Below are positions 2 through 48,842 of a stretch of DNA of 64,000 bases, one piece after another. Position numbers and translations under genes: made by a program. Source of the DNA: Escherichia coli (lineage in GTDB: Bacteria > Pseudomonadota > Gammaproteobacteria > Enterobacterales > Enterobacteriaceae); the NCBI RefSeq assembly GCF_022846255.1, contig NZ_AP025682.1. One strand, written 5' to 3'. The notes under the pieces are model-generated. The model made no database searches and was not told the DNA's origin. It saw only the letters and a program-made list of their open reading frames with translations. The first letter of the stretch is position 1, and the number at the start of each line of letters is the position of its first letter.

Positions 2-877
2 AAATATATCGCTCTCGATCTCTCGCTACCACTGGGCAACTGGTTTAGCGCAGGGATGACCCATCAAAACGGCTACACCATGGCAAACCTGTCAGCACGC
101 AAACAGTTTGATGAAGGAACCATTCGCACTGTTGGTGCCAATCTGTCACGAGCCATCTCCGGCGATACCGGTGATGACAAAACCCTCAGCGGTGGGGCGT
201 ATGCACAGTTCGACGCTCGTTACGCCAGCGGAACGCTGAACGTCAATAGCGCGGCGGACGGCTACATCAATACCAATTTGACCGCCAACGGCAGCGTCGG
301 CTGGCAGGGTAAAAACATCGCTGCCAGCGGGCGGACCGATGGCAACGCTGGGGTGATATTCGACACTGGCCTGGAGAACGATGGTCAGATCAGCGCCAAA
401 ATCAACGGGCGGATTTTCCCGCTTAACGGCAAGCGTAACTATCTCCCGCTCTCTCCCTATGGAAGATATGAGGTGGAGTTGCAGAACAGCAAAAACTCAC
501 TCGACAGTTACGATATCGTCAGCGGTCGCAAAAGTCATCTGACTCTCTATCCAGGCAATGTCGCTGTCATTGAGCCAGAGGTGAAGCAGATGGTTACCGT
601 CTCCGGTCGTATCCGTGCGGAAGACGGCACACTGCTGGCTAACGCACGGATTAACAACCATATCGGCCGAACCCGAACCGATGAAAACGGCGAGTTTGTC
701 ATGGACGTGGATAAGAAATACCCCACTATCGATTTTCGCTACAGTGGCAATAAAACCTGCGAAGTGGCACTGGAACTCAACCAGGCGCGCGGTGCCGTCT
801 GGGTCGGTGATGTGGTCTGCAGCGGCCTCTCATCGTGGGCGGCGGTGACGCAGACAGGAGAAGAGAATGAGAGTTAA
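2..877 (+). CDS. ecpC: Fimbrial usher EcpC (MatD/YagX), C-terminal part; start lies upstream of the window
   Basis: Frame is open from window start to stop at 877; followed directly by ecpD and ecpE in the conserved ecp order; sequence recognised as the usher C-terminus. Confidence 0.8.
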
Positions 878-2510
878 CCTACTGATAGCGATGATAATCT
901 TTGCGCTAATCTGGCCTGCAACCGCGCTCAGAGCGGCAGTGAGCAAAACAACCTGGGCGGATGCTCCGGCACGCGAGTTTGTGTTTGTCGAAAACAACTC
1001 AGACGACAACTTTTTCGTCACTCCTGGCGGGGCGCTGGATCCGCGCCTGACCGGTGCCAACCGCTGGACCGGTTTAAAATACAATGGTTCAGGAACCATC
1101 TATCAGCAAAGCCTCGGCTACATTGATAACGGTTACAACACCGGCCTTTATACCAACTGGAAGTTTGATATGTGGCTGGAAAATTCACCAGTTTCATCTC
1201 CTTTAACTGGCTTGCGCTGCATCAACTGGTACGCAGGGTGTAATATGACCACCAGTCTTATCCTGCCGCAAACCACCGACGCCAGTGGATTTTATGGCGC
1301 GACGGTGACCAGCGGCGGCGCGAAATGGATGCACGGCATGTTGTCAGACGCGTTTTACCAGTATCTGCAACAAATGCCCGTCGGCAGCAGCTTTACAATG
1401 ACCATCAATGCCTGCCAGACCTCTGTGAACTATGACGCCAGCAGCGGCGCACGCTGTAAGGATCAGGCCTCCGGCAACTGGTATGTTCGCAACGTCACCC
1501 ATACGAAAGCAGCAAATCTGCGGTTGATAAATACCCACTCGCTGGCGGAAGTATTTATCAACAGCGACGGAGTTCCGACTCTGGGCGAAGGGAACGCCGA
1601 CTGCCGGACGCAAACCATCGGCAGTCGTTCAGGATTAAGTTGTAAGATGGTTAACTATACCCTGCAAACAAACGGACTCAGCAACACCTCAATCCATATA
1701 TTCCCGGCGATCGCCAACTCGTCGTTAGCCTCGGCCGTCGGGGCGTACGATATGCAGTTCAGTCTGAATGGCAGTTCATGGAAACCGGTGAGCAATACTG
1801 CCTATTACTACACCTTCAACGAGATGAAGAGCGCAGACTCGATCTATGTTTTCTTCTCGAGCAACTTCTTTAAACAGATGGTGAACCTCGGGATCAGCGA
1901 TATCAACACCAAAGATCTATTCAACTTTCGCTTTCAGAACACCACATCACCGGAGTCTGGCTGGTATGAATTTTCTACCTCCAACACGCTGATTATCAAA
2001 CCCCGTGATTTCAGCATCAGTATTATCTCCGATGAATATACTCAGACACCGTCGCGGGAGGGATATGTCGGCAGCGGCGAGTCGGCACTCGATTTCGGCT
2101 ATATCGTAACCACCAGCGGTAAAACAGCTGCCGACGAAGTGCTGATCAAGGTGACCGGACCCGCGCAGGTGATTGGCGGGCGCTCCTATTGTGTCTTCAG
2201 CTCCGATGACGGTAAGGCTAAAGTACCGTTCCCGGCGACGCTTTCCTTTATTACCCGCAACGGAGCTACAAAAACCTACGATGCCGGGTGCGATGATAGC
2301 TGGCGGGATATGACCGATGCGCTGTGGTTGACCACACCGTGGACTGATATCTCTGGCGAAGTGGGGCAGATGGATAAGACCACAGTCAAATTTTCGATTC
2401 CAATGGATAACGCCATTTCTCTGCGTACGGTAGATGATAACGGCTGGTTTGGCGAAGTCAGCGCTTCAGGAGAGATTCATGTTCAGGCGACGTGGCGTAA
2501 CATTAACTAA
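867..2510 (+). CDS. ecpD: E. coli common pilus tip adhesin EcpD (YagW), 547 aa
   Basis: Full-length ORF with signal-peptide-like N-terminus ([20 protein letters not shown]); length and sequence match EcpD as I recall it. Confidence 0.9.
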
Positions 2511-3189
2511 GGCCCTGCTGACAGTGGTCTGTATGCTGGCGGCACCTTTGACACAGGCGATTTCGGTCGGCAATCTGACTTTTTCACTGCCGTCCGAGAC
2601 TGACTTTGTCAGCAAACGTGTCGTGAATAACAACAAAAGCGCGCGGATATACCGTATTGCCATCAGTGCTATTGATAGCCCGGGCAGCAGTGAATTGCGC
2701 ACCCGACCGGTGGATGGTGAACTACTTTTCGCCCCCCGCCAGCTGGCGTTGCAGGCTGGTGAGAGCGAGTATTTTAAATTTTACTATCATGGTCCACGGG
2801 ATAACCGCGAGCGCTACTACCGGGTCTCATTTCGCGAGGTCCCCACTCGTAACCTGACAAAACGCAGCCCAACCGGCGGTGAGGTCAGCACGGAGCCGGT
2901 GGTGGTGATGGATACCATTCTGGTAGTACGACCACGTCAGGTTCAGTTTAAATGGTCCTTCGATCAGGTGACCGGAACGGTAAGTAACACCGGCAACACG
3001 TGGTTTAAGCTACTGATTAAACCAGGATGTGATTCGACCGAAGAGGAAGGCGATGCCTGGTATCTACGTCCGGGAGACGTGGTTCATCAGCCTGAGTTAC
3101 GTCAGCCGGGGAATCATTATCTGGTCTATAACGACAAATTCATTAAGATTAGCGATTCCTGTCCGGCTAAGCCCCCTTCGGCGGACTAA
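2479..3189 (+). CDS. ecpE: Fimbrial chaperone EcpE (YagV), about 236 aa
   Basis: Start chosen at [14 protein letters not shown] (ORF track begins 15 codons earlier); overlaps ecpD end by 32 nt. Confidence 0.85.
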
Positions 3190-22361: not shown

Positions 22362-23678
22362 TTACGCGAATGCCGCCATGCTGGCTTTCATGGTGTACAC
22401 CTCGACCAGCGTGTTGGTGTACTCCTCGAGATAACGGTCGTAGTTGGCGTTATAGGTATCAGTAAGCTGATCGCCTTCGTCCTGAATTTTGCTCATCTGA
22501 TCGTCAATGTTCTGCTGGCGCAGGGTGATGATGCCGTTGCTGGAGTCCGTGTAGGTGTTAATCAGGTCGTCCATCTGTGCCACCATGCTGTTGTCGCCAA
22601 CGAAAATAGAGGTCAGACCGTCAGGATTTTTCGCCATTTCGTCGTTGAACTGGTCGGAGTCAATCTGTAAGTGGCCGTGAGAATCAAGCGTGATGCCATA
22701 GTCAACAATCGACACCCCGTTGTAGCTGGCATGGGCGATATCATCGAGCTGGTTCGCCAGTGAGCTGAGTCCGGCGTCACCCGCAAATACCCCGGCGCTG
22801 GTACTGTCATCACCGTGGGTGGTCAACGAATCAACCGTATCAATCAAGGTGTTATAAGCATCAACAAAGGTCTGTACTTTCTCCTGGCTGGCGCTGGAAT
22901 CTTCGCTGATGTTAAAGGTAGTGAGATCGCTGTCAGAATCGCTGACTTCGGTGAAAGTCATGGTGACGCCGGGGATCACATCATCAAAGGTATTGCTGCT
23001 ATTAGTGATCTCTGGCCCCGTGGCGCTGCCGAGATGAATAATCGCGTCCTGGGCGGAGGAAACATCCGTAGCAACAGGCGCGCTGGCGCTGTCGTTGCTG
23101 GCGTCATGCCCCGTTACGCTCACCGAAAATGCGCTCTGCGCCCCGGTGCTATCGGAGGTGAGCATAATCGTGGTGGTGCCGTCGGTTTTTACCAGTGCCG
23201 CCGACACGCCCGGATTGTCATCAGAGTCGTTAATCGCATTCACCAGTTCACTGGCGTCGATAAAACCGTCGCCGTCACCGTTCTGATCTGCCGCCGACAG
23301 ATCAATATCCATGGTGCTGTCGCCCATCGTCAGTTCGAAGGTGCCGGTAGCGGAAAAGGCGTCGTCGCCCATACTGAACGTGGTTTGCTGCCCCTGTGCC
23401 AGTTGCTCAACGAAAAATGAGTAGCTTCCCGCCTGCACCTGCGAGTTAGCGGAAACGGTCGCCGAGTCATTATTGCTGGTGGCGGCAAACGTCACCGGGC
23501 CGTCAGTATCGCTGTTCAGCGCGTCAACGGCGCTCTGAAAATCGCTCAACGCTGAGCTGAGCGAGTCCAGGCCGCTGCTTTCAGCATCCAGCTCGCTCTG
23601 CTTCTCCTGCAAATTGGCTGCCTGAGTGGCAACATCCGCATAAGCGATTTCTTGCGCAATGGTTCTTGGGTTGATCAT
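22362..23678 (-). CDS. lafB: Filament cap protein LafB (FliD / HAP2-like), 438 aa
   Basis: FliD-like N- and C-terminal heptad regions; first gene after a sigma54 promoter motif. Confidence 0.8.
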   Translation of the reverse strand: MINPRTIAQEIAYADVATQAANLQEKQSELDAESSGLDSLSSALSDFQSAVDALNSDTDGPVTFAATSNNDSATVSANSQVQAGSYSFFVEQLAQGQQTTFSMGDDAFSATGTFELTMGDSTMDIDLSAADQNGDGDGFIDASELVNAINDSDDNPGVSAALVKTDGTTTIMLTSDSTGAQSAFSVSVTGHDASNDSASAPVATDVSSAQDAIIHLGSATGPEITNSSNTFDDVIPGVTMTFTEVSDSDSDLTTFNISEDSSASQEKVQTFVDAYNTLIDTVDSLTTHGDDSTSAGVFAGDAGLSSLANQLDDIAHASYNGVSIVDYGITLDSHGHLQIDSDQFNDEMAKNPDGLTSIFVGDNSMVAQMDDLINTYTDSSNGIITLRQQNIDDQMSKIQDEGDQLTDTYNANYDRYLEEYTNTLVEVYTMKASMAAFA

Positions 23679-23710
23679 TGATGACTCCGGATAACGATGT
23701 CAGGTTATTG

Positions 23711-23725
23711 GCAAAAGGCGTGCCA
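23711..23725 (-). promoter_or_regulatory. Sigma54 (-24/-12) promoter motif upstream of lafB
   Basis: Minus strand reads TGGCACgccttTTGC, a perfect match to TGGCAC-N5-TTGC; predicted start site about 20 nt upstream of the lafB ATG, which has a GGAG Shine-Dalgarno. Confidence 0.6.
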
Positions 23726-23842
23726 ATAATTTTTATGTGAATAATCAATAAATTGAAAAAGGGGCGGAAATGGTGTTTCCGGTCTGGCGGAAAAAAGCCT
23801 GCCGCTGAAAGCACAACACCGCCCGCAGGCGGTGTTGTTCGT

Positions 23843-27178: not shown

Positions 27179-28108
27179 TTAGAGAACGCTGAATAAATTC
27201 AACTCACTCACTTTCGAGTAAGTCTTGAGGGTAGCTTCCATTGCCACTTCCAGTCCGGTAAAGGTGATCGACGCCGGGCCGTAATCGAGATCCTGTAAAG
27301 AACCAATCAACTCATCATTAGAGGTAGAAATATCGGTCTGCGCATCGCTCAGCATCGACATGGTGTTCTGCGTCTCGCCAAGCGACGCAATCGAGGCGTT
27401 GAGATCGTCCGAAGCGGTATCCACCACATCAACGGCGTTCTGAAGATCGCTCTGCACCTGCGGATCTGCCGGGTCAACATCCGGGTTTTGCAGCTCCTGC
27501 GACAGGGAATTAAGGGTGTTGAGCACGTCTAAATTACTGCCGAAGAAATCGCTCGCCGCCACGTTGGTATCCACTTCCACGCCGTTCGACACCGTAGTCT
27601 GACGATGGTCACTGTTACCCTGATAGCTATAGCTGTCGGTCACACCATCACCGTCATCATCCACAGCCACAATCGGCGGCTGATCGTTGATGGTGCCGCC
27701 AAAGACGTAATGCCCGTCTTCATCCTGATAGTTCAGCGCCGCGACCATTGATTCGGTGAGCGACTCAATATCCTGGCCGAGGCTTGCCAGCGAATCGGCG
27801 GTATTGGTGCCGTTCGCTGCTTCCAGCAGGTCGTCACGCACCGCCAGCAGGCTGTTGTTGACGCCATCAAGAATAGACTCCTGCTGGCTTAAGCCCGCCG
27901 ACGCGGAGTCGATATTGCTCTGATACTGTTCAATCGCCGACTGCTGGCGGTTTAACTGGGTGATGCGCGTGGCGGCGATTGGGTCATCCGACGGCTGCAA
28001 AATTTCCTTGCCGGTTGCCATCTGCTCGACCACATGCGCCAGAGAGCCGGAGAGATTATTAAAACTTTGCGTCATCGAGACGTAGGTTTGTTGGGTGGTT
28101 ACTCGCAT
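27179..28108 (-). CDS. lfgL: Hook-filament junction protein LfgL (FlgL / HAP3-like)
   Basis: Flagellin-like N-terminal segment (MRVTTQQTYVSMTQ...PSDDPIAATR); start set 8 codons inside the ORF-track start. Confidence 0.8.
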   Translation of the reverse strand: MRVTTQQTYVSMTQSFNNLSGSLAHVVEQMATGKEILQPSDDPIAATRITQLNRQQSAIEQYQSNIDSASAGLSQQESILDGVNNSLLAVRDDLLEAANGTNTADSLASLGQDIESLTESMVAALNYQDEDGHYVFGGTINDQPPIVAVDDDGDGVTDSYSYQGNSDHRQTTVSNGVEVDTNVAASDFFGSNLDVLNTLNSLSQELQNPDVDPADPQVQSDLQNAVDVVDTASDDLNASIASLGETQNTMSMLSDAQTDISTSNDELIGSLQDLDYGPASITFTGLEVAMEATLKTYSKVSELNLFSVL

Positions 28109-28122
28109 TTTCGCGCTCCCGC

Positions 28123-29499
28123 TTAGCTGCACATTTCCAGCACCGAATCGAAAATCTCGGCCCCGGCGGAAATGACTTTCAGATTGGCTTCATAAATTTG
28201 TTGATAGGTGATCAGGTTCACCGCCTCTTCGTCCATGCTGACGCCGCTGACGCTACTCTGCTGGTTTTGCGCTTCGGAATAGACATTGGACGCGGCATCG
28301 ACTTCCGTCTGGTTTTGCTGACTGTAAATGCCGATATTGCTGATGATTGACGAGCACGCCTGCCCGACCGTCACACTGCCGAGGTTGGCTATCTCCAGCG
28401 GTTCGGTGGAGATATTGATCAGCGCCTGCAGGTTGTCGCTGTTGCCGCTTTCGTCCGGTGAACTGGAAAACGCCAGCTCATCGGCAGTGATATCCGGGTT
28501 AACGGTCAGTGGGCCGTCGGCATTGCTGGCATCGTAAATAAACAGTGGCTCGCCGGGGTTACCGTTGAGATCGTAGCCCTGCGCCAGCTGGTTGTTGACC
28601 GCATCGGCGAACTGCGACGCCATGCTGTTGATGGTGTCGGTCAGCGGCGTCAGCACATCGTTTTGATAATCAAACAGTGCGCCTAATGAACCGCCAGTGT
28701 CGGTGGTCATCGTCGAGATGGTTCCGGCGAAGGTCAGCGTCATACTTGCTGTACCATCGGCGTTGGTTTCCAGCGCGATGGTCGAGCTTTGCTGCCCGCT
28801 CACCAGCGGCTGACCGTTTTTCAGGGTGACGTTGTAGTTGCCCTGGTCGTCAACATTGACCTGCACGTCCATCATTCCGCTCAGTTCTTCCACCATCTGA
28901 TCGCGGGCGTCGTACAGCGCGGAGGCGTTATCGCCGTTGGCTTCGGCCTGAGCGATTTGCTGGTTATAGCTGGCGATGCCGCTGGTCAGCGTATTGATTT
29001 GCGATACCATCGCCTGCTGCTGACTGATGATTTCCGTGCTTTGCGAGTCGATGTAATCCAGCGTGTTGTCGATGCGCAAGGACAGCGCCCCGGCTTCGCT
29101 GATCACCTGCTCGCGCAGGGCGGAATCATCGGGGCTGGTGGTCGCTTCGTTAAGGGCAGCGAAAAAGTTATCGAAGCCGCCGCTCAGACTGCTGTTATCG
29201 TCGCTCAGTACCGCTTCCAGTTGTGTGAGATACCCTTGTTGGGTGCTGTAATAGCCGTAATCGCTGGCGGCATACCATACCTGATTAACCTGATACTGGT
29301 TGGAGACGCGGCGAATACTGTCGACCTGCACGCCGTTACCGGCGCTGTTCGGCGAACCACCGCTGGCACCGATGGTGCTGATCTCCGCCACCTGGCGGGT
29401 GTAGCCCGTGGTCATGGCGTTAGCGGTGTTTTGCGCCGTGACGTTCAGCTCCACCTGCGCGGTTGATGCGCCGCTGTAGCCGATGTTAATCATGTCCAT
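28123..29499 (-). CDS. lfgK: Hook-associated protein 1 LfgK (FlgK-like), 458 aa
   Basis: FlgK-like N-terminus (NAMTTGYTRQ) and conserved C-terminal helix. Confidence 0.85.
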   Translation of the reverse strand: MDMINIGYSGASTAQVELNVTAQNTANAMTTGYTRQVAEISTIGASGGSPNSAGNGVQVDSIRRVSNQYQVNQVWYAASDYGYYSTQQGYLTQLEAVLSDDNSSLSGGFDNFFAALNEATTSPDDSALREQVISEAGALSLRIDNTLDYIDSQSTEIISQQQAMVSQINTLTSGIASYNQQIAQAEANGDNASALYDARDQMVEELSGMMDVQVNVDDQGNYNVTLKNGQPLVSGQQSSTIALETNADGTASMTLTFAGTISTMTTDTGGSLGALFDYQNDVLTPLTDTINSMASQFADAVNNQLAQGYDLNGNPGEPLFIYDASNADGPLTVNPDITADELAFSSSPDESGNSDNLQALINISTEPLEIANLGSVTVGQACSSIISNIGIYSQQNQTEVDAASNVYSEAQNQQSSVSGVSMDEEAVNLITYQQIYEANLKVISAGAEIFDSVLEMCS

Positions 29500-29571
29500 G
29501 TTGGGTCCTTACCGGTAAATCGTGCCGGTTAAAAGCGGCGTGAAGTTGGGGATTCTTAAGTGGATAATGGT

Positions 29572-29705
29572 GCGCGCTGATGCCCTCACCCCGGCCCTCT
29601 CCCACAGGGAGAGGGCGAAAACCTGCGCCATATTCACCTCCGCGCTCAATCGGTCCCCTCGCCCCTTTGGGGAGAGGGTTAGGGTGAGGGGCAAAGCGCG
29701 CCCCT
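29572..29705. repeat. ~130-bp compound palindromic intergenic repeat, copy A (two hairpin units), between lfgK and lfgJ
   Basis: CCCTCACCCCGGCCCTCTCCCacaGGGAGAGGGC ... TCCCCTCGCCCCTTTGGGGAGAGGGTTAGGGTGAGGGG; near-exact reverse complement of copy B at 38862..38993. Confidence 0.6.
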
Positions 29706-30004
29706 CATTTCCCCTTCGGCGACAACTGCTTCACAATCATCGCCGCAATCCCAATCCCGTGCTGCTGCGCCAGGGTGTTACACAACTCATCGTCATAAAA
29801 CCCCTGCATCATGCGCACCGAATCGCTGTTAAATGGGTTATCTTTCGAATCGAACAACTCGTTGGTTTTACGCATCTCTTTCAGCATGTTGCGTAAAAAA
29901 ATCGCCTCAAACTGTTCCGCGGCCTGCCTGATATCATTGGCCTGAACCTTCGGCCCCATTAACGCATCGCTGCCGTCAATCCCGCCGCTGCCGTTGATTT
30001 TCAT
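29705..30004 (-). CDS. lfgJ: Rod-binding protein LfgJ (FlgJ N-terminal-domain-like), 99 aa, no muramidase domain
   Basis: Short ORF in the flgJ position between flgI-like and flgK-like genes. Confidence 0.7.
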   Translation of the reverse strand: MKINGSGGIDGSDALMGPKVQANDIRQAAEQFEAIFLRNMLKEMRKTNELFDSKDNPFNSDSVRMMQGFYDDELCNTLAQQHGIGIAAMIVKQLSPKGK

Positions 30005-31119
30005 CAGATCACCTCCAGGTCGGCATCCAGCGCGCCCGCCTCATGCAGCGCCTGCAAAATCGACATAATGTCATCCGGCGTCGCGCCTAAACTGTTCAAC
30101 GCATTAACCAACGTTTTCAGGCTGCTCGACTCCGGCAAACTCACCACGCCCGGACGGGCATGATTCACCGCGATATTGCTCTGTGGCGTTACTGCCGTAC
30201 GCCCGCCCGCAAAGGCATTCGGTTGGCTGACGTTGCTGGTTTCGTTAATTGAGACAGTCAGGCTGCCATGCGACACCGCCGCCGCGTGCAGCGCGATGCC
30301 ATCGCCCATCACCACCGTACCGGTACGCGAGTTAAACACCACGCGGGCGCGGATTTTCTCCGCCTGCACCTGCACATCATCCAGTTGCGACATAAACGCC
30401 ACCCGCGCGCCGGGGCTGGTGGGCGCACGCACAGTGACGTTGGTGGAACTCTGCGCCGTGGCAATGCCGCCAAACGAGGCGTTGATCGCCGCCGCAATGT
30501 TGTTGGCGTCTTTAAACGACGGGCGTTTCAGGTTGAGCGTGATGGTGTCGCCCATCTGAAAATCGCTGGGGATCTCGCGCTCCACCGTCGCGCCGTTGGG
30601 AATTAACCCGGCGGTTGGCGTATTAACCGTTACGCTCGAACCGCTGGCCCCGGTGGCATTCATCCCGCCCACCACCACGCTGCCCTGCGCCAGCGCATAA
30701 ACTTCGCCATCCGCGCCGTGCAACTGGGTCAGCAACAAAGTGCCGCCACGAATACTTTTGGCATCGCCAATCGACGAAACGGTGACATCAATGGTCTGCC
30801 CGCGCGAGTACATCGGCGGCAGCGTGGCGCTCACCGCCACCGCGGCGACGTTTTTCACCTTCGGGTCGATTTTATTCGGCAGTTGCACGCCAAACTGGCG
30901 CAGCATATTGGTGATGGTCTGGTTGGTGAATTTGACCTGGTTTTTATCGCCCGTGCCGTCGAGGCCGACCACCAGGCTGTAGCCGACCAGTTGGTTTTCA
31001 CGCACGCCCTGTACGTTGACCAGCGATTCCAGCGATTGCGCCAGCGCCACGCCAGGTAGCGCCAGGCTCACGGTGATTACTGCGGCCTTTATCCAGTTTT
31101 GCATTGCACTCTCCGGCAT
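30004..31119 (-). CDS. lfgI: P-ring protein LfgI (FlgI-like), 371 aa
   Basis: Signal peptide followed by FlgI-like sequence (...[13 protein letters not shown]...). Confidence 0.9.
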
Positions 31120-31784
31120 TAAATCGGGAACAGAGGATGGTTAAACAGTCGCGTCAACCAGCCTGCGGCGTTGGCGTCGCTTAACGCGCCGCGTCCGGCA
31201 TAGGAGATGCGGGCATCGGCGATCCGCTGCGAGGAAACCGAGTTGTCGTTCTGGATGTCGTCGGCGCGCACCAGGCCGCTTAAGCGGATGTACTCATCGC
31301 CCTGGTTGAGGGTCAGCCATTTTTCGCCGCGAATTTCCAGGATGCCGTTAGGCTGCACCGCATGGACGGAAACGGTGATCTCCCCGCGCAGGCTGTTCTG
31401 CTGCTGGGAAGTGGCGCTGCCGTCAAAGTCGCGGTTGGCATCAATGGAGCCGGAAAGCTTATCTTTGGTGTGTCCAAAAATGGTCGGCGCGCCGATATCG
31501 ACGGTGTTGCTTTTGCCGAAGTTGGTTTTCGCCTGTTTGCTCGACTGGGTGGATTCTTCGAGGATCACCGTCAGGATATCGCCCACGCGGTAAGCCCGCC
31601 GGTCGGCAGTTAGCGACCAGTTGTAGCCGGTTTCAAACACGCCCCCGGCACGCCCGTCTGCCGGAGGCGGCGCTTCGGTGGTTGGTGGCGCAAAGTATGC
31701 GTCGTCTTTTTTGACCAGAATGGCCTGCGATTCACACCCGCTAAGCAGGGGAAGCAGCGCCACCAGCCAGAGATAATTTTTCAC
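31119..31784 (-). CDS. lfgH: L-ring lipoprotein LfgH (FlgH-like), about 221 aa
   Basis: GTG start chosen at [17 protein letters not shown] (lipobox LLSGC); the ORF-track N-terminal extension runs into a REP element. Confidence 0.85.
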
Positions 31785-31818
31785 GTTCTGCCTGTTTAAA
31801 TACAGTGAGTTATGTGCT

Positions 31819-31860
31819 CTTGTAGGTCGGATAAGACGCCTCAGCGTCGCATCCGACATT
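31819..31860. repeat. REP element between lfgG and lfgH
   Basis: GTAGGTCGGATAAGACGCCTCAGCGTCGCATCCGACAT. Confidence 0.55.
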
Positions 31861-31865
31861 TCGCC

Positions 31866-32651
31866 TTACAGCGTCTGGCTGATGTACTGCAACATATCGT
31901 CCGCTGCTGACACCATTTTGGCGTTCATCTCGTACGCGCGTTGCACCGTAATCATCGCCACCATTTCGTTGACGATATCCACGTTCGAGCCTTCGAGCGC
32001 GTTGTCCTGCAAGGTGCCAAGCCCATCTTCGCCCGGCACGCCTTCGGTCGGCTGACCGCTGGCGGCGGTTTCCAGATAGAGGTTGTCGCCCTCGGCGGAA
32101 AGCCCCGCCGGGTTGGCGAAGTTCACCAGCGTCAGTTGCCCTAACTCGGTCACGTCGCTGTCGCCGGGTAAGATCGCCGTCACCGTACCGTCCTCACCAA
32201 ACGCGACGTTGGTCGCCCCCGCCGGAACGTCGATTTCCGGCTGCAACGGCAAGCCCTGCGAGTTGGTCAGTACGCCGTCAGCGTTCACCTGCAAGTTGCC
32301 GTCGCGGGTATAAGCGATATCGCCGTTGGCCTTTTGCACCTGCAAAAATCCCAGCCCCATAATGGCGACATTCATCGCGTTGTCGGTGGTTTCGACGTTG
32401 CCTTCGGTGAAGGTTTTCTGAGTGCCGACAATGCGTACGCCGCTACCGAATTGCAGCCCGGTCGGCATAATGTTGTTCTGATCGAGCATCGCGCCCGGCG
32501 CTTCCTGGGTCTGGTAAAACAGATCCTGAAACATCACCCGGTCGCGCTTAAAGCCTGTGGTGTTAACGTTGGCGATGTTGTTGGCAATCGCGCTCATTTC
32601 AGCATCCTGCGCTGAGAGGCCGGTTTTGCTGATCCATAGTGCTGCGTTCAT
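31866..32651 (-). CDS. lfgG: Distal rod protein LfgG (FlgG-like), 261 aa
   Basis: Conserved rod/hook N-terminus (ISKTGLSAQDAEMSAIANNIANVNTTGFK) and C-terminus. Confidence 0.9.
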   Translation of the reverse strand: MNAALWISKTGLSAQDAEMSAIANNIANVNTTGFKRDRVMFQDLFYQTQEAPGAMLDQNNIMPTGLQFGSGVRIVGTQKTFTEGNVETTDNAMNVAIMGLGFLQVQKANGDIAYTRDGNLQVNADGVLTNSQGLPLQPEIDVPAGATNVAFGEDGTVTAILPGDSDVTELGQLTLVNFANPAGLSAEGDNLYLETAASGQPTEGVPGEDGLGTLQDNALEGSNVDIVNEMVAMITVQRAYEMNAKMVSAADDMLQYISQTL

Positions 32652-32686
32652 GGTGGTAAATTCCGTGTTATTTTTTGGCCGCGGTT

Positions 32687-32721
<35 letters not shown>

Positions 32722-32729
32722 ATGTGCGG

Positions 32730-33467
32730 TTACGAGCCGCGCAATAAGCGGTTGCCCGCGTCGCTGATATCTTCGGCGGTTTTCATCATCTTGATCTGCG
32801 CTTCGAACTGGCGGTTCATGGCGATGGACGACATCATCTCACTCACCGCCGAGACGTTGCTGCCCTCGAGAAAACCGCCGCTGACTTTGATGTTTTCATC
32901 GCGCTGGGCCGGAACGCCGTCGGCAGTCACCAGCATCCCTTCAGGATTTTTCGCCAGGTTAGCGACCGGAATATCCACCAGCTTCAGGCGGTCGATATCC
33001 ATCGTCGCGGTCACGTCGCCGTCATCGGGCGTCACCGACAGCGTGCCGTCGCTGCCAAAAGAGGCGATGGCGTTCGGCGGCAGAATAATCGGCCCGTTAT
33101 CCCCCAGCACCAGATTGCCGTCGATGGTCAGTTGCCCCTGGTCGTCCTGCTGAATGTTGCCGTTGCGGGTATAGACTTCGTTGCCGTTTTTATCCTGCAC
33201 CGCAATGTAACCCGCGCCCTGAATCGCCACGTCCAGCGGGCGTTCGGTTTTCTCCGCCACACCCGTGCTGTCGTTCACGCCGCTGGCCCCTTCCTGCGCC
33301 ATATAGCGAGTGTCGAAGCCGCCGCCTTTCACCTTGTCATTGGTCGCCATTGCCATATCGGCGCGAAAACCGTTGGTGTTGACGTTCGCCAGGTTGTTGG
33401 CGCTAATCTGCTGCTCATACAACGTCTGAGAAGCCCCGCTCAGGGCGGTATAAATCAAGCGATCCAT
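32730..33467 (-). CDS. lfgF: Proximal rod protein LfgF (FlgF-like), 245 aa
   Basis: Rod-protein N- and C-terminal conserved segments; position between flgE-like and flgG-like genes. Confidence 0.85.
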   Translation of the reverse strand: MDRLIYTALSGASQTLYEQQISANNLANVNTNGFRADMAMATNDKVKGGGFDTRYMAQEGASGVNDSTGVAEKTERPLDVAIQGAGYIAVQDKNGNEVYTRNGNIQQDDQGQLTIDGNLVLGDNGPIILPPNAIASFGSDGTLSVTPDDGDVTATMDIDRLKLVDIPVANLAKNPEGMLVTADGVPAQRDENIKVSGGFLEGSNVSAVSEMMSSIAMNRQFEAQIKMMKTAEDISDAGNRLLRGS

Positions 33468-34669
33468 TACATTGCCTGGAACAGCGCGTCATCGAGCTGC
33501 GTGCTGGTGGCGATCACTTTGGTGTTGGCCTGATAGTTACGCTGGGCGGTCATCAGGTTAACCAGTTCGCTGGTAATATCGACGTTAGAGCTCTCAAGCG
33601 CTCCCGACGTGAGCGTGCCGCAGGTTCCGGAACCGGGAACACCAATCAGTGGCGTGCCGGATTCCCCGGTTTGTACCCACGCGGTACCGCTTACGGCTTG
33701 CAGGCCGTCGTCGTTAGGGAAAGTCGCCAGCACCACCTGGCCCTGCAACATGCGCTCGCCGTTGCTGTAGGTGGCGTAAACTTTGCCATCGTCATCGACC
33801 TGCACACCGTTCTGAGTCGCGGAGGCGTAGCCGTCGGCGGCGTTGGTGGTGACAGAAAATTCAGAACCGTATTGCGTACAGGTGGAGTAATCGACGGTCA
33901 AATCGATGGGCGCGGCGGCGTCGGTCTGAAACTCAATGGTCTGCGGCGTGGTTGGCGAAGTCAGCTTCCCGGTGTTCGGGTCGAAGGTTAACGTCGTCGC
34001 CGGAACGCCGGTCTGCTGCTGACCGTCGAAGGTGTACTGCACTTCCCAGGTGTTGTCGCTGGTTTTGGTGAAGTACTGGCATACCGAGTGTTCGTTACCT
34101 AATGAGTCGTACACCGTGGTGGTGTAGCTGTCGGTGTACGAGCTGCTGTTGGTCGCGTCGAACGGTACGGTAGTGCGGTCGATAGCGTCGTCGCTGGCAT
34201 CGAAGTTGGCGGTAAAGGTCAGGCTGCTACTGGCCTGCGCCGGAATATTGCCAGTTTTGATCTGGATATCGGTGACTGTACCGGTTTGCAGAGTGCCCGT
34301 GTCATCGACCGGATAGCCCTGCAAATAAGCGCCCGAGGCGTTGACGATATAGCCGTTTTTGTCGGTTTCAAACGATCCAGCGCGGGTATAAGAAATGTTG
34401 CCCGCGCTGTCGCAGGTAACAAAAAAACCGTCGTCGTTAATCGCCAGATCCAGCGCGTTACCAGTGGAGACCAGCGAACCGCCGCGCGAAATACTTTGCG
34501 CGGTGCCCGCCACGCTGACGCCCATCGCCTGGCTTCCGGCATACATGGCGGAAAACTGGGTGGTCATCGACTTATAGCCCACCGTTCCGGCGTTAGCGAT
34601 GTTGTTACTGATCCCGTCGAGCTGTTCGTTAACGGCATTCAGCCCCGTTGCGGCAATTTCATAACTCAT
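33467..34669 (-). CDS. lfgE: Flagellar hook protein LfgE (FlgE-like), 400 aa
   Basis: FlgE-like termini (MSYEIAATGLNAVNEQLDGISNNIANAGTVGYK ... SNVDITSELVNLMTAQRNYQAN). Confidence 0.9.
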   Translation of the reverse strand: MSYEIAATGLNAVNEQLDGISNNIANAGTVGYKSMTTQFSAMYAGSQAMGVSVAGTAQSISRGGSLVSTGNALDLAINDDGFFVTCDSAGNISYTRAGSFETDKNGYIVNASGAYLQGYPVDDTGTLQTGTVTDIQIKTGNIPAQASSSLTFTANFDASDDAIDRTTVPFDATNSSSYTDSYTTTVYDSLGNEHSVCQYFTKTSDNTWEVQYTFDGQQQTGVPATTLTFDPNTGKLTSPTTPQTIEFQTDAAAPIDLTVDYSTCTQYGSEFSVTTNAADGYASATQNGVQVDDDGKVYATYSNGERMLQGQVVLATFPNDDGLQAVSGTAWVQTGESGTPLIGVPGSGTCGTLTSGALESSNVDITSELVNLMTAQRNYQANTKVIATSTQLDDALFQAM

Positions 34670-34692
34670 TGTTTCTTCCTGTTAATTGATTC

Positions 34693-35406
34693 TTACGCCA
34701 CATCACTGTCGGCATCGGGTACGCCAAACTGGCTAATCATGGTGAACGGCACTTCACCTACACCTGCAACGTTAAGTACCGGGGAGCTGCCGTCGAGCGG
34801 GATGCGCACATCTTCCACTTCGCCGGAGACTTCAATCGGTACCTCTTCTTCCCCGGTGTTGGTCACCACCGAGACGTCGTAATCGCCCGGCGGGATGCCG
34901 TAATCCGCCGGATTAATCGAGAAATCGACCTGGCCTGGCCCAACCGACGAACTCCCTTCCGGGATCAGCGAGACGGTGTAGTCATCGCCCGCAGCATCGG
35001 TAAAGTGGAGATCGGCGGTGGTACAGGCGTCATCCAGCGTGGCGCGACCGTTAATGGTCTGATCACTCACCTGCAAGGCGGTGGTCTGCACCATAATGTC
35101 GTCGCCCACCAGATTGCCGAGCGCCATCACCTGAATGTTGCTCATCAGCACCGCGTTGGTGTTGGCCTGCACGCTCATCTCTTCCATCATCGCCACCTGC
35201 GCCATCGAAGAAAGCTGGTCGATATATTCGGTGGCGTCAGTCGGGTCGGTCGGGTCCTGGTTTTGGATCTCAGCGACAAACAGCGTCAGGAAGGTATCGA
35301 CGGGCGAGCTATCGCTGCTACTTTGCGTGTCGCTGGCCGCCACGTTGTTGCTTTCCGCCGTGGCGGTCGGCTGCGGCGATTGCGCATTCAGCGCCAGGGT
35401 ATTCAT
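34693..35406 (-). CDS. lfgD: Hook capping/scaffold protein LfgD (FlgD-like), 237 aa
   Basis: Position and FlgD-like N-terminal region. Confidence 0.8.
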   Translation of the reverse strand: MNTLALNAQSPQPTATAESNNVAASDTQSSSDSSPVDTFLTLFVAEIQNQDPTDPTDATEYIDQLSSMAQVAMMEEMSVQANTNAVLMSNIQVMALGNLVGDDIMVQTTALQVSDQTINGRATLDDACTTADLHFTDAAGDDYTVSLIPEGSSSVGPGQVDFSINPADYGIPPGDYDVSVVTNTGEEEVPIEVSGEVEDVRIPLDGSSPVLNVAGVGEVPFTMISQFGVPDADSDVA

Positions 35407-35837
35407 CAGGCTTCTCCCAGTTTCAGCAGGCTTTGCTGCATACTTTTCACGTTGTTGAGCACATCGACATTGGTTTCAAAATCGCGCGAGGCCGACATCA
35501 TGTCCGCCATCTGTTCCACCACGTTGACGTCGGGATACCAGACATCCCCGTTAGCATCGGCGAGCGGCGAATGTGGTTCATAGCGTTTCACCGCCCCGCC
35601 GGTTTGCAGCACGTCCTGCACCTGCACGCTGGCACCGTCAATGGCGTGGCGATGCGTTCCCGCCAGCAAGCTGTTGTGATACACCGCCGCAAACACCGGG
35701 CTGCGCGCTTTATACGCCTGCGCCTCGCTGCTGGCGGGCGCATTGGCATTCGCCAGGTTACTGGCAACGGTATTCAGACGCAGCGTTTGCGCCGTCATCG
35801 CCGAGCCGGAAATCTGATAGATATCAGTAAATGACAT
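35406..35837 (-). CDS. lfgC: Proximal rod protein LfgC (FlgC-like), 143 aa, uninterrupted
   Basis: FlgC-like sequence (MSFTDIYQISGSAMTAQTLRLNTVASNLANANAP...); single ORF with no frameshift. Confidence 0.9.
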   Translation of the reverse strand: MSFTDIYQISGSAMTAQTLRLNTVASNLANANAPASSEAQAYKARSPVFAAVYHNSLLAGTHRHAIDGASVQVQDVLQTGGAVKRYEPHSPLADANGDVWYPDVNVVEQMADMMSASRDFETNVDVLNNVKSMQQSLLKLGEA

Positions 35838-35839
35838 GC

Positions 35840-36175
35840 TTATTTCCCTTCAATGGCCTCTCTGATGCCGCTGATTTGCAGATTCAGAAAGGTCAGACTG
35901 CTTTGATAATCCATACTATTTTGTGAAAACCGCGCCTGTTCGCTGTTCAGTTCCACGGTGTTGCCATCTTCCGACGGCTGCATCGGCACGCGGTACTGGA
36001 CATCCACCGCCGCGTTATTTGCCCGTTGCATCTCCCTGGCAAAATCAATATCTTTAGCCTTGAAATTTGGCGTATCGACGTTCGCCAGATTCGCAGTCAG
36101 TAGCTCGGTCCTCTCAAGACGTAACTTCACTGCCTGCGGATGCACTCCCAATGCCTGTTGAAAACTGATCCCCAT
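35840..36175 (-). CDS. lfgB: Proximal rod protein LfgB (FlgB-like), about 111 aa
   Basis: Start set at MGISFQQALG with an AGGAG Shine-Dalgarno; the longer ORF-track start would lie upstream of the predicted sigma54 start site. Confidence 0.85.
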   Translation of the reverse strand: MGISFQQALGVHPQAVKLRLERTELLTANLANVDTPNFKAKDIDFAREMQRANNAAVDVQYRVPMQPSEDGNTVELNSEQARFSQNSMDYQSSLTFLNLQISGIREAIEGK

Positions 36176-36211
36176 TTCTTGCGTCACTCCTGCTTCAATC
36201 CGCATACGCTA

Positions 36212-36228
36212 AGCAATCGCCGTGCCAT
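36212..36228 (-). promoter_or_regulatory. Sigma54 (-24/-12) promoter motif for the lfgB...L operon
   Basis: Minus strand reads TGGCACggcgaTTGCT, a perfect match to TGGCAC-N5-TTGCW, about 25 nt upstream of the lfgB start. Confidence 0.65.
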
Positions 36229-36256
36229 TTTTTAAGTGACTGATGAGAAAAGGTTT

Positions 36257-36994
36257 ATGAGTTTTCAATTTTGCAGGCGGAAGTTTTATTTCCTCCTGGC
36301 GCTGGCCTTACCGGGCTACGCCGCCGTCCATCCCGTGCAACATAGCGCGCGGGAACAAGTCAACGCCCAGGTGCTGAATGCCGCCAGCCAGCAGATTGAA
36401 TCGCTAGCGCAGCAGCGGCAGTGGCATGACTATCGCTACACCTTTAAGGTCTACATTCCCTCGCAGATTTCGACTGCCGCGCCCTGCGCTACGGCCCCCG
36501 GCGTCACGCTGACTTCGCCTGCGGAAATCGCTCTCAACCGGATGAACTTCACCGTCAGTTGCCCGCAAAGCTGGCAGATGAACGTCGCGGTGCGCCCGGA
36601 TGTTCTGGTACCGGTGGTGATGGCAAAGTCACTGGTTGCCCGCGATACGCCGCTCACGGCAAATGATGTGGAGCTGAAGCCCTACAACGTCAGCGCCCAG
36701 CGTCGCGATGTGTTGATGGAGCTTGATGACGCGATTGGTTTCAGCAGTAAACACGCGTTGCAGCCGGGCAGGCCAATCACCAAAGAAGAACTGATATCTC
36801 CGGTGCTGGTCGAGCGCGATCAACCGGTGATGATTGTTTACCAGAGCGCGGGGATCAGCGCCTCGCTGCCCGGCGTGGCGCTGAAAAATGGTCGTAAGGG
36901 CGAGATGGTGAAAGTGCGTAACGCCAGCAGCCAGCGGGTCATCAGCGCGATGGTGGCAGAAAGCGGCGTGGTGACGACGGTAAGCGCGGAGTAA
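36257..36994 (+). CDS. lfgA: P-ring assembly chaperone LfgA (FlgA-like); ORF-track start is 36236
   Basis: Signal-peptide-like N-terminus, FlgA-like C-terminal domain; divergent from lfgB as in flgA/flgB arrangements. Confidence 0.75.
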   Translation: MSFQFCRRKFYFLLALALPGYAAVHPVQHSAREQVNAQVLNAASQQIESLAQQRQWHDYRYTFKVYIPSQISTAAPCATAPGVTLTSPAEIALNRMNFTVSCPQSWQMNVAVRPDVLVPVVMAKSLVARDTPLTANDVELKPYNVSAQRRDVLMELDDAIGFSSKHALQPGRPITKEELISPVLVERDQPVMIVYQSAGISASLPGVALKNGRKGEMVKVRNASSQRVISAMVAESGVVTTVSAE

Positions 36995-37794: not shown

Positions 37795-37921
37795 CGACAA
37801 TTCCTTCCGCCATCGCGGAAACGGATTTTCCGCCTGATTCTCAATCCCTTGTTTTTGATTACAAAAATTCCCGGCACGCTTATTGCACATTCCGCAAAGT
37901 AATAAAGACTGGAAGCCACCT

Positions 37922-38851
37922 ATGAGTTTTATTGAATGTTACGAACCGGAATACGTGCGCAATTTTATGACGCAATATCCCGATTCGCCTTTGTACGTCC
38001 GCAAGGTCTGGAAGAATGAGATTCGCCAGAGCCTGGCATTGACCGATATTGAAAGTTGCAAAGCGGTGCTCAACGATGCCAGGGCCTTTGATTTACAGCT
38101 CACCTACCGCCCTGTGGAAGACAATGCCGCCGAGCTATCCGCGCGCGATGCGATAGTAAACCAGGCCATTTTGAGCACCCTTACGCTCCCCGATTTAACC
38201 CCGGAGCTTTCCCTGTATGCCGTCGGGATTTTGCTCTCCCGCGCCAGTAAAATGCCGGGCAGAGACGGAGATATTCTTGCCCGCTTGACGACGCTGCCAC
38301 AGGCGCTGGGGGATCATGCACAAAAAGGCACGCTACAGGCACAGTTCGCCCAACTCCCACCCGTGCCACAACTGGCGCGCCAACTGGTGACGCTGCTCGG
38401 GAGTTTTGCGTTTGACTGGTCGATTTTGCCGGAAAGCCCGCGCAAAGCCTCGCTACCGTTGCAGGTGACTTTGCTGACGTTGCATGACGCCAACAGCGAA
38501 GCTTTGTTGCAACAGCAGCTTAAGGTGCAGTGGCAAACCACCTGGCAACAGCATTTTGCCGCCGCGCCGTGGATGATGCGCAACTGGCTGATTTACCGAG
38601 TTTATCACGACGTGATTGGGCAGGCAGACGGAGCAGATTATTGCCCGCTGGTGTGTGATTTTTATCTCATCCGCACGTTAATCAGTTTATGGACGCTGGA
38701 TGGTTCTGCGCTGCGGCAGGAGGATATTTTCGCCCTCTTTGCCATGTTTGAACGCTGGCGGACCAGTGAAAATGCGCTGTTTATTCGCCAGCAAATTCAG
38801 TCGTTATGTGCCGCAGAGCCGCTGCTGTCAGCGTTTTCGCTGCTGACGTGA
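37922..38851 (+). CDS. Hypothetical protein, about 309 aa, no recognisable domain; first gene of the putative modification module
   Basis: ATG at 37922 with a GGAAG Shine-Dalgarno; same strand as, and upstream of, the multidomain glycosyltransferase. Confidence 0.55.
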   Translation: MSFIECYEPEYVRNFMTQYPDSPLYVRKVWKNEIRQSLALTDIESCKAVLNDARAFDLQLTYRPVEDNAAELSARDAIVNQAILSTLTLPDLTPELSLYAVGILLSRASKMPGRDGDILARLTTLPQALGDHAQKGTLQAQFAQLPPVPQLARQLVTLLGSFAFDWSILPESPRKASLPLQVTLLTLHDANSEALLQQQLKVQWQTTWQQHFAAAPWMMRNWLIYRVYHDVIGQADGADYCPLVCDFYLIRTLISLWTLDGSALRQEDIFALFAMFERWRTSENALFIRQQIQSLCAAEPLLSAFSLLT

Positions 38852-47469: not shown

Positions 47470-48456
47470 TCAGGAGAAAACTTCGATACCGTGCTTGCGC
47501 ATGGAGGCCAGTCGATAGCGCAGTGCGCGCGGGGTAATGCCTAACAGGTCGGCAATTTTGCTGCGGTTGCCCTGATATTTACGCATCAGGTCGGCGATAT
47601 ATTGATACTGCGCACTTCGTCCGGCCTGGCCTAAATCGCTGGTTTCCGCAACAGATACGGAGGGCTGAACAGGCCATTGCAGTTCACTGTGATCGGCAAC
47701 GTCTATTTCCGGCAGGCCTAAGGCATCCGGGAAAATCACGCCGTCGCGGTTTAAAATCATTCCCCGCTGAATGGCGTTCTCCAGCTGACGCACGTTGCCG
47801 GGCCAGCGGTAATTGAGCAGCGCCCGGCGGGTAGATTCTGAAAGGGTGATATTTTTCACCAGCACCGTGGAGTATTTTTTAATAAATGACTCTGCCAATG
47901 GAATAATATCGTTCAGACGTTCACGCAGCGGCGGCATGGTAATAGGAATTACCGCCAGACGATAATAGAGATCTTCACGAAAACGCCCGGCGGCAACTTC
48001 CTGTTCAAGGTTTTTATTGGTACAGGCAATCAGGCGAAAATTGAGTTTAATTTGTCGGTTGCTGCCTAATCGCTCAACCTGTTGTTCCTGCAACACGCGT
48101 AATATTTTGGCCTGAAGCGCCAGCGGCATATCGCCAATTTCATCGAGTAATAAGGTGCCGTTATTCGCCAGTTCCATTTTTCCTGGCACGCTGGCAATTG
48201 CGCCGGTAAATGCACCTTTGTCGTAGCCAAATAAGGTAGATTCCAGCATATTTTCCGGGATCGCCGCGCAGTTCACGCCGACATAGGGTGCGCTTTCATT
48301 TTCACCAAAGGCTACGGTGTGAATATATTTTGCCACGCACTCTTTGCCCGCGCCGGTTTCGCCCTGAATGAGCACCGGCACGTTAAATGCGGCGACACGC
48401 TTTGCCAGAGTAAAAGCGTTAATGCTGGAAGCGGCAGTTGCAATAAGTTCAGACAT
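47470..48456 (-). CDS. lafK: Sigma54-dependent transcriptional activator LafK, 328 aa, AAA+ domain plus C-terminal HTH, no receiver domain
   Basis: Walker A GETGAGKE, GAFTGA motif (ESTLFGYDKGAFTGA), Walker B LLLDEIGDMP, FREDLYYRL, C-terminal HTH (NRSKIADLLGITPRALRYRL); in-frame stop 25 codons upstream of the ATG. Confidence 0.85.
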   Translation of the reverse strand: MSELIATAASSINAFTLAKRVAAFNVPVLIQGETGAGKECVAKYIHTVAFGENESAPYVGVNCAAIPENMLESTLFGYDKGAFTGAIASVPGKMELANNGTLLLDEIGDMPLALQAKILRVLQEQQVERLGSNRQIKLNFRLIACTNKNLEQEVAAGRFREDLYYRLAVIPITMPPLRERLNDIIPLAESFIKKYSTVLVKNITLSESTRRALLNYRWPGNVRQLENAIQRGMILNRDGVIFPDALGLPEIDVADHSELQWPVQPSVSVAETSDLGQAGRSAQYQYIADLMRKYQGNRSKIADLLGITPRALRYRLASMRKHGIEVFS

Positions 48457-48584
48457 AGGGTGAACGATATAAGTAGCGACATTAATCAGGATGTTCTGAA
48501 GCGTATCACCGGTGGGATTAACAAGTTCGAATTAAACGATAATAAAAATATTATTTGTTTATAAACAATGAGTTATAACCGCAG

Positions 48585-48662
48585 GCCGGATAAAGCGTTT
48601 ACGCCGCATCCGGCAATCGTGCACCGGTGCCTGATGCGACGCTGCGCGTCTTATCAGGCCTA
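48585..48662. repeat. Pair of REP elements in the lafK-lfiM divergent intergenic region
   Basis: GCCGGATAAAGCGTTTACGCCGCATCCGGC and GCCTGATGCGACGCTGCGCGTCTTATCAGGCCTAC. Confidence 0.6.
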
Positions 48663-48842
48663 CAGTTCGTGCAATGTTTTATGACGATGCCCTATATCTC
48701 GCCCGTTAATAATTTAATTATTTTTTCACCCTATTAATAATTTGCCCCTTTCACTCCCCCTCTATTTAATACCTCACCTTGTGTCACTGCCGGATTTGCG
48801 TGCACAAAATCGCCCATACCATTACAGCAGAGAAAGTAAGCC

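Follow-up and report, generated by a model that had tools for sequence, protein, structure and literature searches.

The Flag-2 locus and its rod/hook genes

The stretch of Escherichia coli DNA analyzed here (contig NZ_AP025682.1, 64,000 nucleotides, hereafter the window) contains an intact Flag-2 (lateral-type) flagellar locus. Of 5426 complete E. coli genomes, 1279 have this second flagellar system, and the lfgA-lfgB region of the window is 95-99% identical to them. The rod/hook genes lie on the minus strand, where family matches identify homologs of FlgB, FlgC, FlgD, and FlgE. The first of them is lfgB (35840-36175), encoding a 111-amino-acid homolog of the flagellar proximal rod protein FlgB, and it is followed by lfgC to lfgL (27179-35837), which by gene order and family matches specify further rod components, the hook cap, the hook, the L and P rings, and hook-associated proteins. 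The genes lfgF to lfgL were placed by the agreement of their ORF positions with the annotated orthologous locus of E. coli WL297, and tight spacing suggests that lfgB-lfgL form a single operon. No disrupted gene was seen among the rod/hook operon genes in the ORF list. The lfgC gene (35406-35837, minus strand) is intact and encodes 143 amino acids; a frameshift in this gene has been reported for strain 042 (PMC4578781). On the plus strand, divergent from lfgB, lie lfgA (36257-36994), a homolog of the P-ring chaperone gene flgA recognized by family match and WL297 orthology, and the genes for FlgM and FlgN homologs. The intergenic region between lfgA and lfgB (36176-36256) measures 81 bp.

The locus also encodes the sigma-54 enhancer-binding protein LafK (328 amino acids; 47470-48456, minus strand). 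LafK matches the Sigma54_activat (1.9e-64) and AAA_lid_14 domains and ends in a Fis-type HTH_8 domain; a Walker A motif (GETGAGKE) and a GAFTGA loop are present and an N-terminal sensor domain is absent. It shares 48% identity with LafK of Vibrio campbellii, the C-terminal HTH being strongly conserved. In V. campbellii the protein (444 amino acids) has ~120 additional N-terminal residues that form a receiver-like domain, whereas the E. coli protein starts at the AAA+ domain, and a comparison of the two sequences suggests that the control of LafK activity may differ between E. coli and Vibrio. No other sigma-54 activator was found in the Flag-2 genes examined. A further regulator encoded in the locus is LafZ, a ToxR/OmpR-like protein with a winged-helix Trans_reg_C domain. 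The gene for sigma-54 itself, rpoN, is carried by E. coli outside the window. The intergenic region between lafK and lfiM spans 386 bp and contains GC-rich palindromes of the REP/BIME type at 48560-48680 (e.g., gccggataa...ccggc and gcctgatgcgacgc...cttatcaggcctac); a strong sigma-54 site is absent from this region.

The flagellar genes and their surroundings differ in how closely they follow other E. coli genomes. The ecp operon that flanks the locus (56-3100) is 99.9% identical to E. coli, while the top identity of the 1-kb lfgC-lfgB-lfgA region tested was 97.8% among complete E. coli genomes, and the LfgB protein is 100% identical in Escherichia whittamii and Pseudocitrobacter vendiensis. 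Because the flagellar region is less identical than the ecp flank and its LfgB is the LfgB of other species, sequence comparison suggests that the Flag-2 region (17557-55072) is a divergent or horizontally exchanged allele. Flag-2 is often called cryptic or non-functional in E. coli, and for this reason the lfgB promoter described below may be used only rarely.

The -24/-12 element upstream of lfgB

Read on the minus strand from 36227 to 36212, the lfgA-lfgB intergenic region carries the sigma-54 element TGGCAC-GGCGA-TTGCT (TGGCACGGCGATTGCT), preceded by an A-tract (aaaaaTGGCACGGCGATTGCTtagcg in its longer reading). The -24 GG occupies 36225-36226 and the -12 GC 36213-36214. The initial annotation had placed an exact -24/-12 match at 36212-36228; the sequence is as it described, but the motif occupies 36212-36227, the interval having taken in one A too many. 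The element is intergenic and oriented toward lfgB, with its 3' end 36 nt and the -12 C 38 nt before the ATG at 36175. The FlgB, FlgC, FlgD, and FlgE homologs downstream and the conservation described below both bear out the assignment of this site as the sigma-54 promoter of the lfgB rod/hook operon.

The exact pattern TGGCAC-N5-TTGCW occurs once in the window, both strands considered, and that occurrence is the lfgB site. Taken alone, an exact match is only mildly improbable, with a mean of 0.10 matches per shuffled window and at least one match in 10 of 100 shuffles. The looser pattern TGGCAC-N5-TTGC has two matches, one at lfgB and the other at 23711-23725 before lafB, a number reached in 3 of 100 shuffles. 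In a weighted scan of the whole window for YTGGCACG-N4-TTGCW, in which the GG and GC were required and the maximum was 23.5, the lfgB site (ATGGCACGGCGATTGCTT, GG and GC 10 bp apart) ranked first with 22.5, and the next ranks were taken by two more intergenic, correctly oriented sites. It is the intergenic position and orientation of the match, its top rank in the scan and its conservation across genera that make it decisive.

This conservation was seen at two scales. When nine lfgA-lfgB intergenic sequences from eight genera were aligned, TGGCA and TTGC did not vary, whereas the mean identity per column was 62%. A survey in which one genome per species was scanned yielded 80 loci encoding an LfgB relative, and 79 of these had, 31-89 nt before lfgB, a sigma-54 site with a score of 20 or more out of 23.5. 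When 72 distinct Enterobacterales sequences were anchored on the -12 C, TGGCA and TTGC reached 2.0 bits, with the GG/GC core invariant in all 72, and the neighboring positions held 0-0.5 bits. Related loci share ancestry, so that such raw counts overstate independence; the true signal lies in invariant arms set against a free spacer and flanks. As judged from these alignments there is a clear phylogenetic footprint at the lfgB promoter, and chance is excluded. A functionless chance match, for which the 10 shuffles of 100 might have spoken, is effectively refuted by the cross-species conservation, in addition to the correct position and orientation of the site and the second match before lafB, and we give this reading a negligible probability.

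A different origin for lfgB transcription would be a sigma-70 class 2 promoter responding to FlhDC or another activator, with the sigma-54 motif a mere vestige. The divergent flgA/flgB layout does mirror that of Flag-1, in which both operons are driven by FlhDC and sigma-70. The likeness extends to operon content, but the sigma factor and activator assigned to the two systems differ. In a simple scan of 35800-36700 for -35/-10 pairs alone, which is a weak test, no sigma-70 pair was found on the lfgB strand; the 81-bp intergenic region held none, and the only match lay on the other strand inside lfgB. Furthermore, a vestigial motif would be expected to drift, whereas in more than 70 species the core of this one stays the same and the positions beside it drift. 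We therefore regard a sigma-70 promoter as very improbable here.

The sigma-54 element also bears on where lfgB begins. In sigma-54 promoters, the C of the GC element is taken as -12, and by this rule transcription is predicted to start at ~36201 (36199-36202, minus strand). The 5' UTR would then be ~26 nt long and hold a GGAG at 36187-36190, whose 11-nt distance to the lfgB ATG is a long Shine-Dalgarno spacing that we count against our preferred explanation. The motif had initially been described as lying ~25 nt before the lfgB start; this does not hold for the end of the motif, which is 36 nt away, but does hold for the predicted transcription start. The mechanical ORF opens ten codons further upstream, at an ATG (36205-36203) that falls at -4 to -2 relative to this start. 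Since its ATG precedes the predicted transcript, the ten-codon N-terminal extension (36176-36205) is probably untranslated. Homologs from several genera agree, with 16 of 16 beginning at the methionine equivalent to ATG 36175 and the extension found in none, and the PGAP annotation of E. coli WL297 likewise uses the short start. The earlier suggestion that the motif helps to pick the correct lfgB start codon is thus borne out.

The lfgB sigma-54 site is not new. TGGCAC-N5-TTGC has already been reported upstream of lfgB and lafB in strain PCN033 (Liu et al., 2015; PMC4578781). Locus and motif are the same as here, and the two reported sites are exactly the two TGGCAC-N5-TTGC matches of the window. 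That report is a one-sentence remark on the motif and does not include a conservation analysis, the promoter in variable region 1 (VR1), the start-codon argument or the dyad treated below. The PCN033 prediction is said to follow that of Ren et al. in 2005 on strain 042.

The upstream dyad and the composite promoters

The nine-sequence intergenic alignment also brought out an invariant GGAA...TTCC. In the window this is the inverted repeat GGAAATAAAACTTCC (GGAA-N7-TTCC) at 36279-36293, inside codons 8-13 near the 5' end of lfgA, with its center 73 nt upstream of the -12 C (~-85). On account of its recurrence, conservation and codon usage we consider it a candidate LafK upstream activating sequence. 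The window contains four copies of GGAA-N7-TTCC where 1.06 would be expected, and 2 of 100 shuffles reached that number. Three of the four precede the three best sigma-54 sites, at 73 (lfgB), 62 (lafB), and 62 (VR1) nt from the -12 C. The fourth exact copy (32224-32238) lies inside lfgG and has no sigma-54 partner at the expected spacing; as about one copy is expected, it is probably due to chance, an internal regulatory site being the alternative.

The second composite promoter (23710-23780, minus strand) consists of the sigma-54 site TGGCACGCCTTTTGCC at 23710-23725 and the dyad GGAAACACCATTTCC at 23766-23780, and stands upstream of lafB (22362-23678, minus strand), which encodes a FliD homolog. 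The third (37817-37887, plus strand) consists of the dyad GGAAACGGATTTTCC at 37817-37831 and the sigma-54 site CGGCACGCTTATTGCA at 37872-37887. It precedes the genes of VR1, an ORF for a FliB-like (flagellin lysine-N-methylase-like) protein with an ATG at 37922 and an 838-amino-acid glycosyltransferase, and loci of Escherichia and Citrobacter have kept this module. The mechanical start of the FliB-like ORF, a TTG at 37883, overlaps the promoter, and the PGAP-type ATG at 37922 fits better. The lafB and VR1 dyads are non-coding, and all three promoter-linked copies extend to GGAAA-N5-(T/C)TTCCGCC.

A relaxed composite search of the window, allowing up to one dyad mismatch, a sigma-54 score of at least 17 and a spacing of 60-78, returned no further convincing composite promoter. 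The extra matches that it gave inside lfiI and lfiJ were rejected as weak and within coding sequence. The lafK-lfiE, lfiM-lfhA, and lfgAMN operons showed no strong sigma-54 site or comparable module in this search, which agrees with published accounts of lateral operons that do not depend on LafK (PMC3930126, PMC4481668). A sigma-28 consensus scan was also made and dropped, as it gave only noise of 2-3 mismatches. The lfgAMN promoter was not identified; a sigma-54 closed complex at lfgB would sit ~30 nt from the lfgA ATG, and interference or coupling between the divergent lfgA and lfgB units is possible.

Between the dyad and the -24 element of lfgB lies an IHF-like element (CATCAGTCACTTA, 36233-36245, minus strand) followed by an A-tract. 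Compared with the IHF consensus WATCAANNNNTTR, the matching sequence between dyad and promoter has no mismatch at lafB, where the perfect consensus AATCAATAAATTG is found, one at VR1 and two at lfgB. The two mismatches at lfgB are a point against our preferred explanation. The element is moderately conserved (~1 bit at -33 to -17), and IHF binding at this site is putative.

The dyad keeps its distance from the promoter over a wide range of relatives. Across 81 loci (1.63 Mb), dyad-promoter distances fall at 62-63 nt (17 cases) and 70-77 nt (66 cases), two peaks about one helical turn apart, and outside these almost no dyads occur within 300 nt on either side. In each of the 73 Enterobacterales lfgB loci a dyad precedes the -12 C by 73-77 nt. 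Of 80 promoter regions scored, 62 have an exact copy, and these 62 are all from Enterobacterales; the other Enterobacterales loci have a single mismatch, mostly the final C to A. The arms hold ~2 bits, against 0-0.2 bits for the five positions in the center, and a perfect match appeared in none of 1600 shuffles. Beyond the Enterobacterales, the lateral flgB of V. campbellii has the sigma-54 site TGGCATGCATCTTGT and an exact dyad 63 nt upstream, the sole copy in a 5.4-kb locus. This places V. campbellii, a close relative of V. parahaemolyticus, in the 62-63 spacing class, as opposed to the 73-77 class of E. coli lfgB. The scan upstream of lfgB found an exact dyad 129 nt upstream in Serpens and Pseudomonas flexibilis, and the Methylomonas, Neptuniibacter, and Spongiibacteraceae loci have sigma-54-like sites with no dyad at that position. 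The flgB of a V. breoganii plasmid lacked both a good sigma-54 site and the dyad. The only Aeromonas match obtained, from A. caviae, was the polar flgB beside a cheR-like gene and served as a negative control; its sigma-54 promoter has no dyad.

With the lfgB copy lying within lfgA codons, in a frame that is constant in 72 of 73 loci, its conservation might be thought to reflect the N-terminus of the LfgA protein, that is, an R-K-x-x-F motif of the signal peptide, and not a site in DNA. The codons speak against this. The first dyad codon is CGG, AGG, GGG, GTG, TGG, ATG, or CTG, so that the residue varies (R, G, V, W, M, or L) and the third base is always G, with arginine encoded only by the rare CGG and AGG. 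Phenylalanine is encoded by TTC in all 72 cases and never by TTT, and the codon after it keeps a C in its first position while the residue is R, P, or L. Because synonymous and amino-acid-changing positions are both fixed, the constraint on the dyad at lfgB, read from these codons, is on DNA and not on the LfgA protein. The same dyad is moreover non-coding at lafB and VR1, and recurs at the Vibrio lateral flgB. An explanation through LfgA is therefore quite unlikely.

No description of a LafK binding site was found in the literature searched, a limited collection. On sequence grounds the dyad is a plausible candidate LafK enhancer. We rate the chances as even that GGAA-N7-TTCC (extended GCGGAAA-N5-TTTCCGC) is a previously undescribed LafK enhancer, phased at ~-74 or ~-85, which defines a three-operon regulon, is common to Vibrio and constrains the codons of lfgA. 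For a sigma-54 activator, a site centered at ~-85 or ~-74 is near to the promoter and would need a sharp bend, a further point that we count against our preferred explanation.

Proposed LafK-dependent activation of the Flag-2 operons

Orthologous operons give the experimental setting for this promoter. The flgB2 (VPA0264) promoter of V. parahaemolyticus carries ATGGCACGTATCTTGT and its fragment is shifted by RpoN in EMSA, and deletion of rpoN lowers flgB2CD expression (PMC9817140). The flgB2/flgBL operon is orthologous to that of lfgB and belongs to class 2 of the LafK/sigma-54 hierarchy; its sigma-54 site is like that of E. coli, except that the -12 element reads TTGT in Vibrio and TTGC in E. 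coli. In A. hydrophila, the activity of the lateral PflgB, which is orthologous to the E. coli lfgB promoter, was 970 Miller units and dropped to 20 when lafK was mutated, a reporter demonstration of LafK dependence in that species (PMC5013049). The E. coli locus shows the features of the LafK-dependent class 2 model, namely a lateral-type flgB operon, Flag-2 gene content and order, and lafK in the same locus. The literature searched, again a limited collection, yielded no rpoN tests of E. coli Flag-2 and no transcript, start-site, RpoN-binding or LafK-binding data. The proposal in the initial annotation that LafK controls the rod/hook operon is plausible by sequence and by analogy, in view of an intact LafK, the rpoN and lafK dependence of orthologs, and a conserved dyad at enhancer distance.

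PspF of E. coli, another activator composed of an AAA+ domain and an HTH domain with no sensor domain, has an upstream dyad near the sigma-54 pspA promoter with an IHF site between the two. It is held in check by PspA, and LafK is not known to have a PspA-like partner. The likeness between the two lies in the AAA+ and HTH architecture and in the layout of dyad, IHF site and promoter; they differ in regulon, recognition sequence and control. LafK has been classed together with PspF and HrpR/S in type Ic, the activators without a sensor domain (PMC3162934).

We propose, with a probability of roughly 0.8, that the motif is a functional RpoN promoter of lfgBCDEFGHIJKL that is remodeled by LafK, with the dyad as docking site and an IHF-like bend between them, and that three operons are controlled together. 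A closed complex would form as RpoN holoenzyme binds to the -24 GG and -12 GC at 36212-36227. LafK, as a dimer or oligomer, would dock at the dyad ~85 nt upstream, inside the first codons of lfgA, and a bend assisted by IHF or the A-tract at the A/T-rich element just upstream of -24 would bridge it to the holoenzyme on the same helical face. LafK would then use ATP to open the promoter, with transcription near 36201 occurring only upon this remodeling. With a shift of one helical turn, this architecture would also drive lafB (the filament cap gene) with its downstream genes and the VR1 genes, so that LafK may switch on all three operons (lfgB-L, lafB, and VR1) together. We infer the dependence on RpoN and LafK, the start site, the binding of LafK to the dyad, and the involvement of IHF.

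A genuine sigma-54 promoter could also be served by an activator other than LafK, for instance a chromosomal one acting from solution or from another site, with the dyad binding a repressor or LafZ. LafZ, with its Trans_reg_C domain, is indeed encoded in the locus, and LafK is only a candidate for the protein that binds the dyad; regulators besides LafK act on the lateral genes of V. parahaemolyticus and A. hydrophila (PMC3930126, PMC4481668), and in Aeromonas LafK has been reported not to be a strict master regulator (PMC4481668). However, the Flag-2 genes examined include no sigma-54 activator but LafK, and the dyad and sigma-54 site co-occur only at Flag-2 promoters, at helically phased distances. 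The symmetry of the dyad suits a dimeric Fis-type HTH and not an OmpR-type binder of direct repeats. In addition, PflgB activity is abolished in the Aeromonas lafK mutant (PMC5013049), and the polar flgB promoter has no dyad. Another activator is thus improbable, though it is the strongest of the competing explanations.

The promoter supports a wiring of Flag-2, through RpoN and LafK, like that of the lateral flagella of Vibrio and Aeromonas and unlike that of the primary FlhDC system, a view already present in the literature, and its position also fixes the start codon of lfgB. What is gained here is a composite signature of dyad, IHF-like element and -24/-12 box at fixed spacing, which predicts LafK-activated Flag-2 operons, including the flagellin-modification genes of VR1. 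The signature offers targets for mutagenesis, EMSA and reporter studies of Flag-2 expression in E. coli. If the dyad is the LafK enhancer, enterobacterial Flag-2 would have a three-operon LafK regulon whose enhancer is shared with the lateral flagella of Vibrio.
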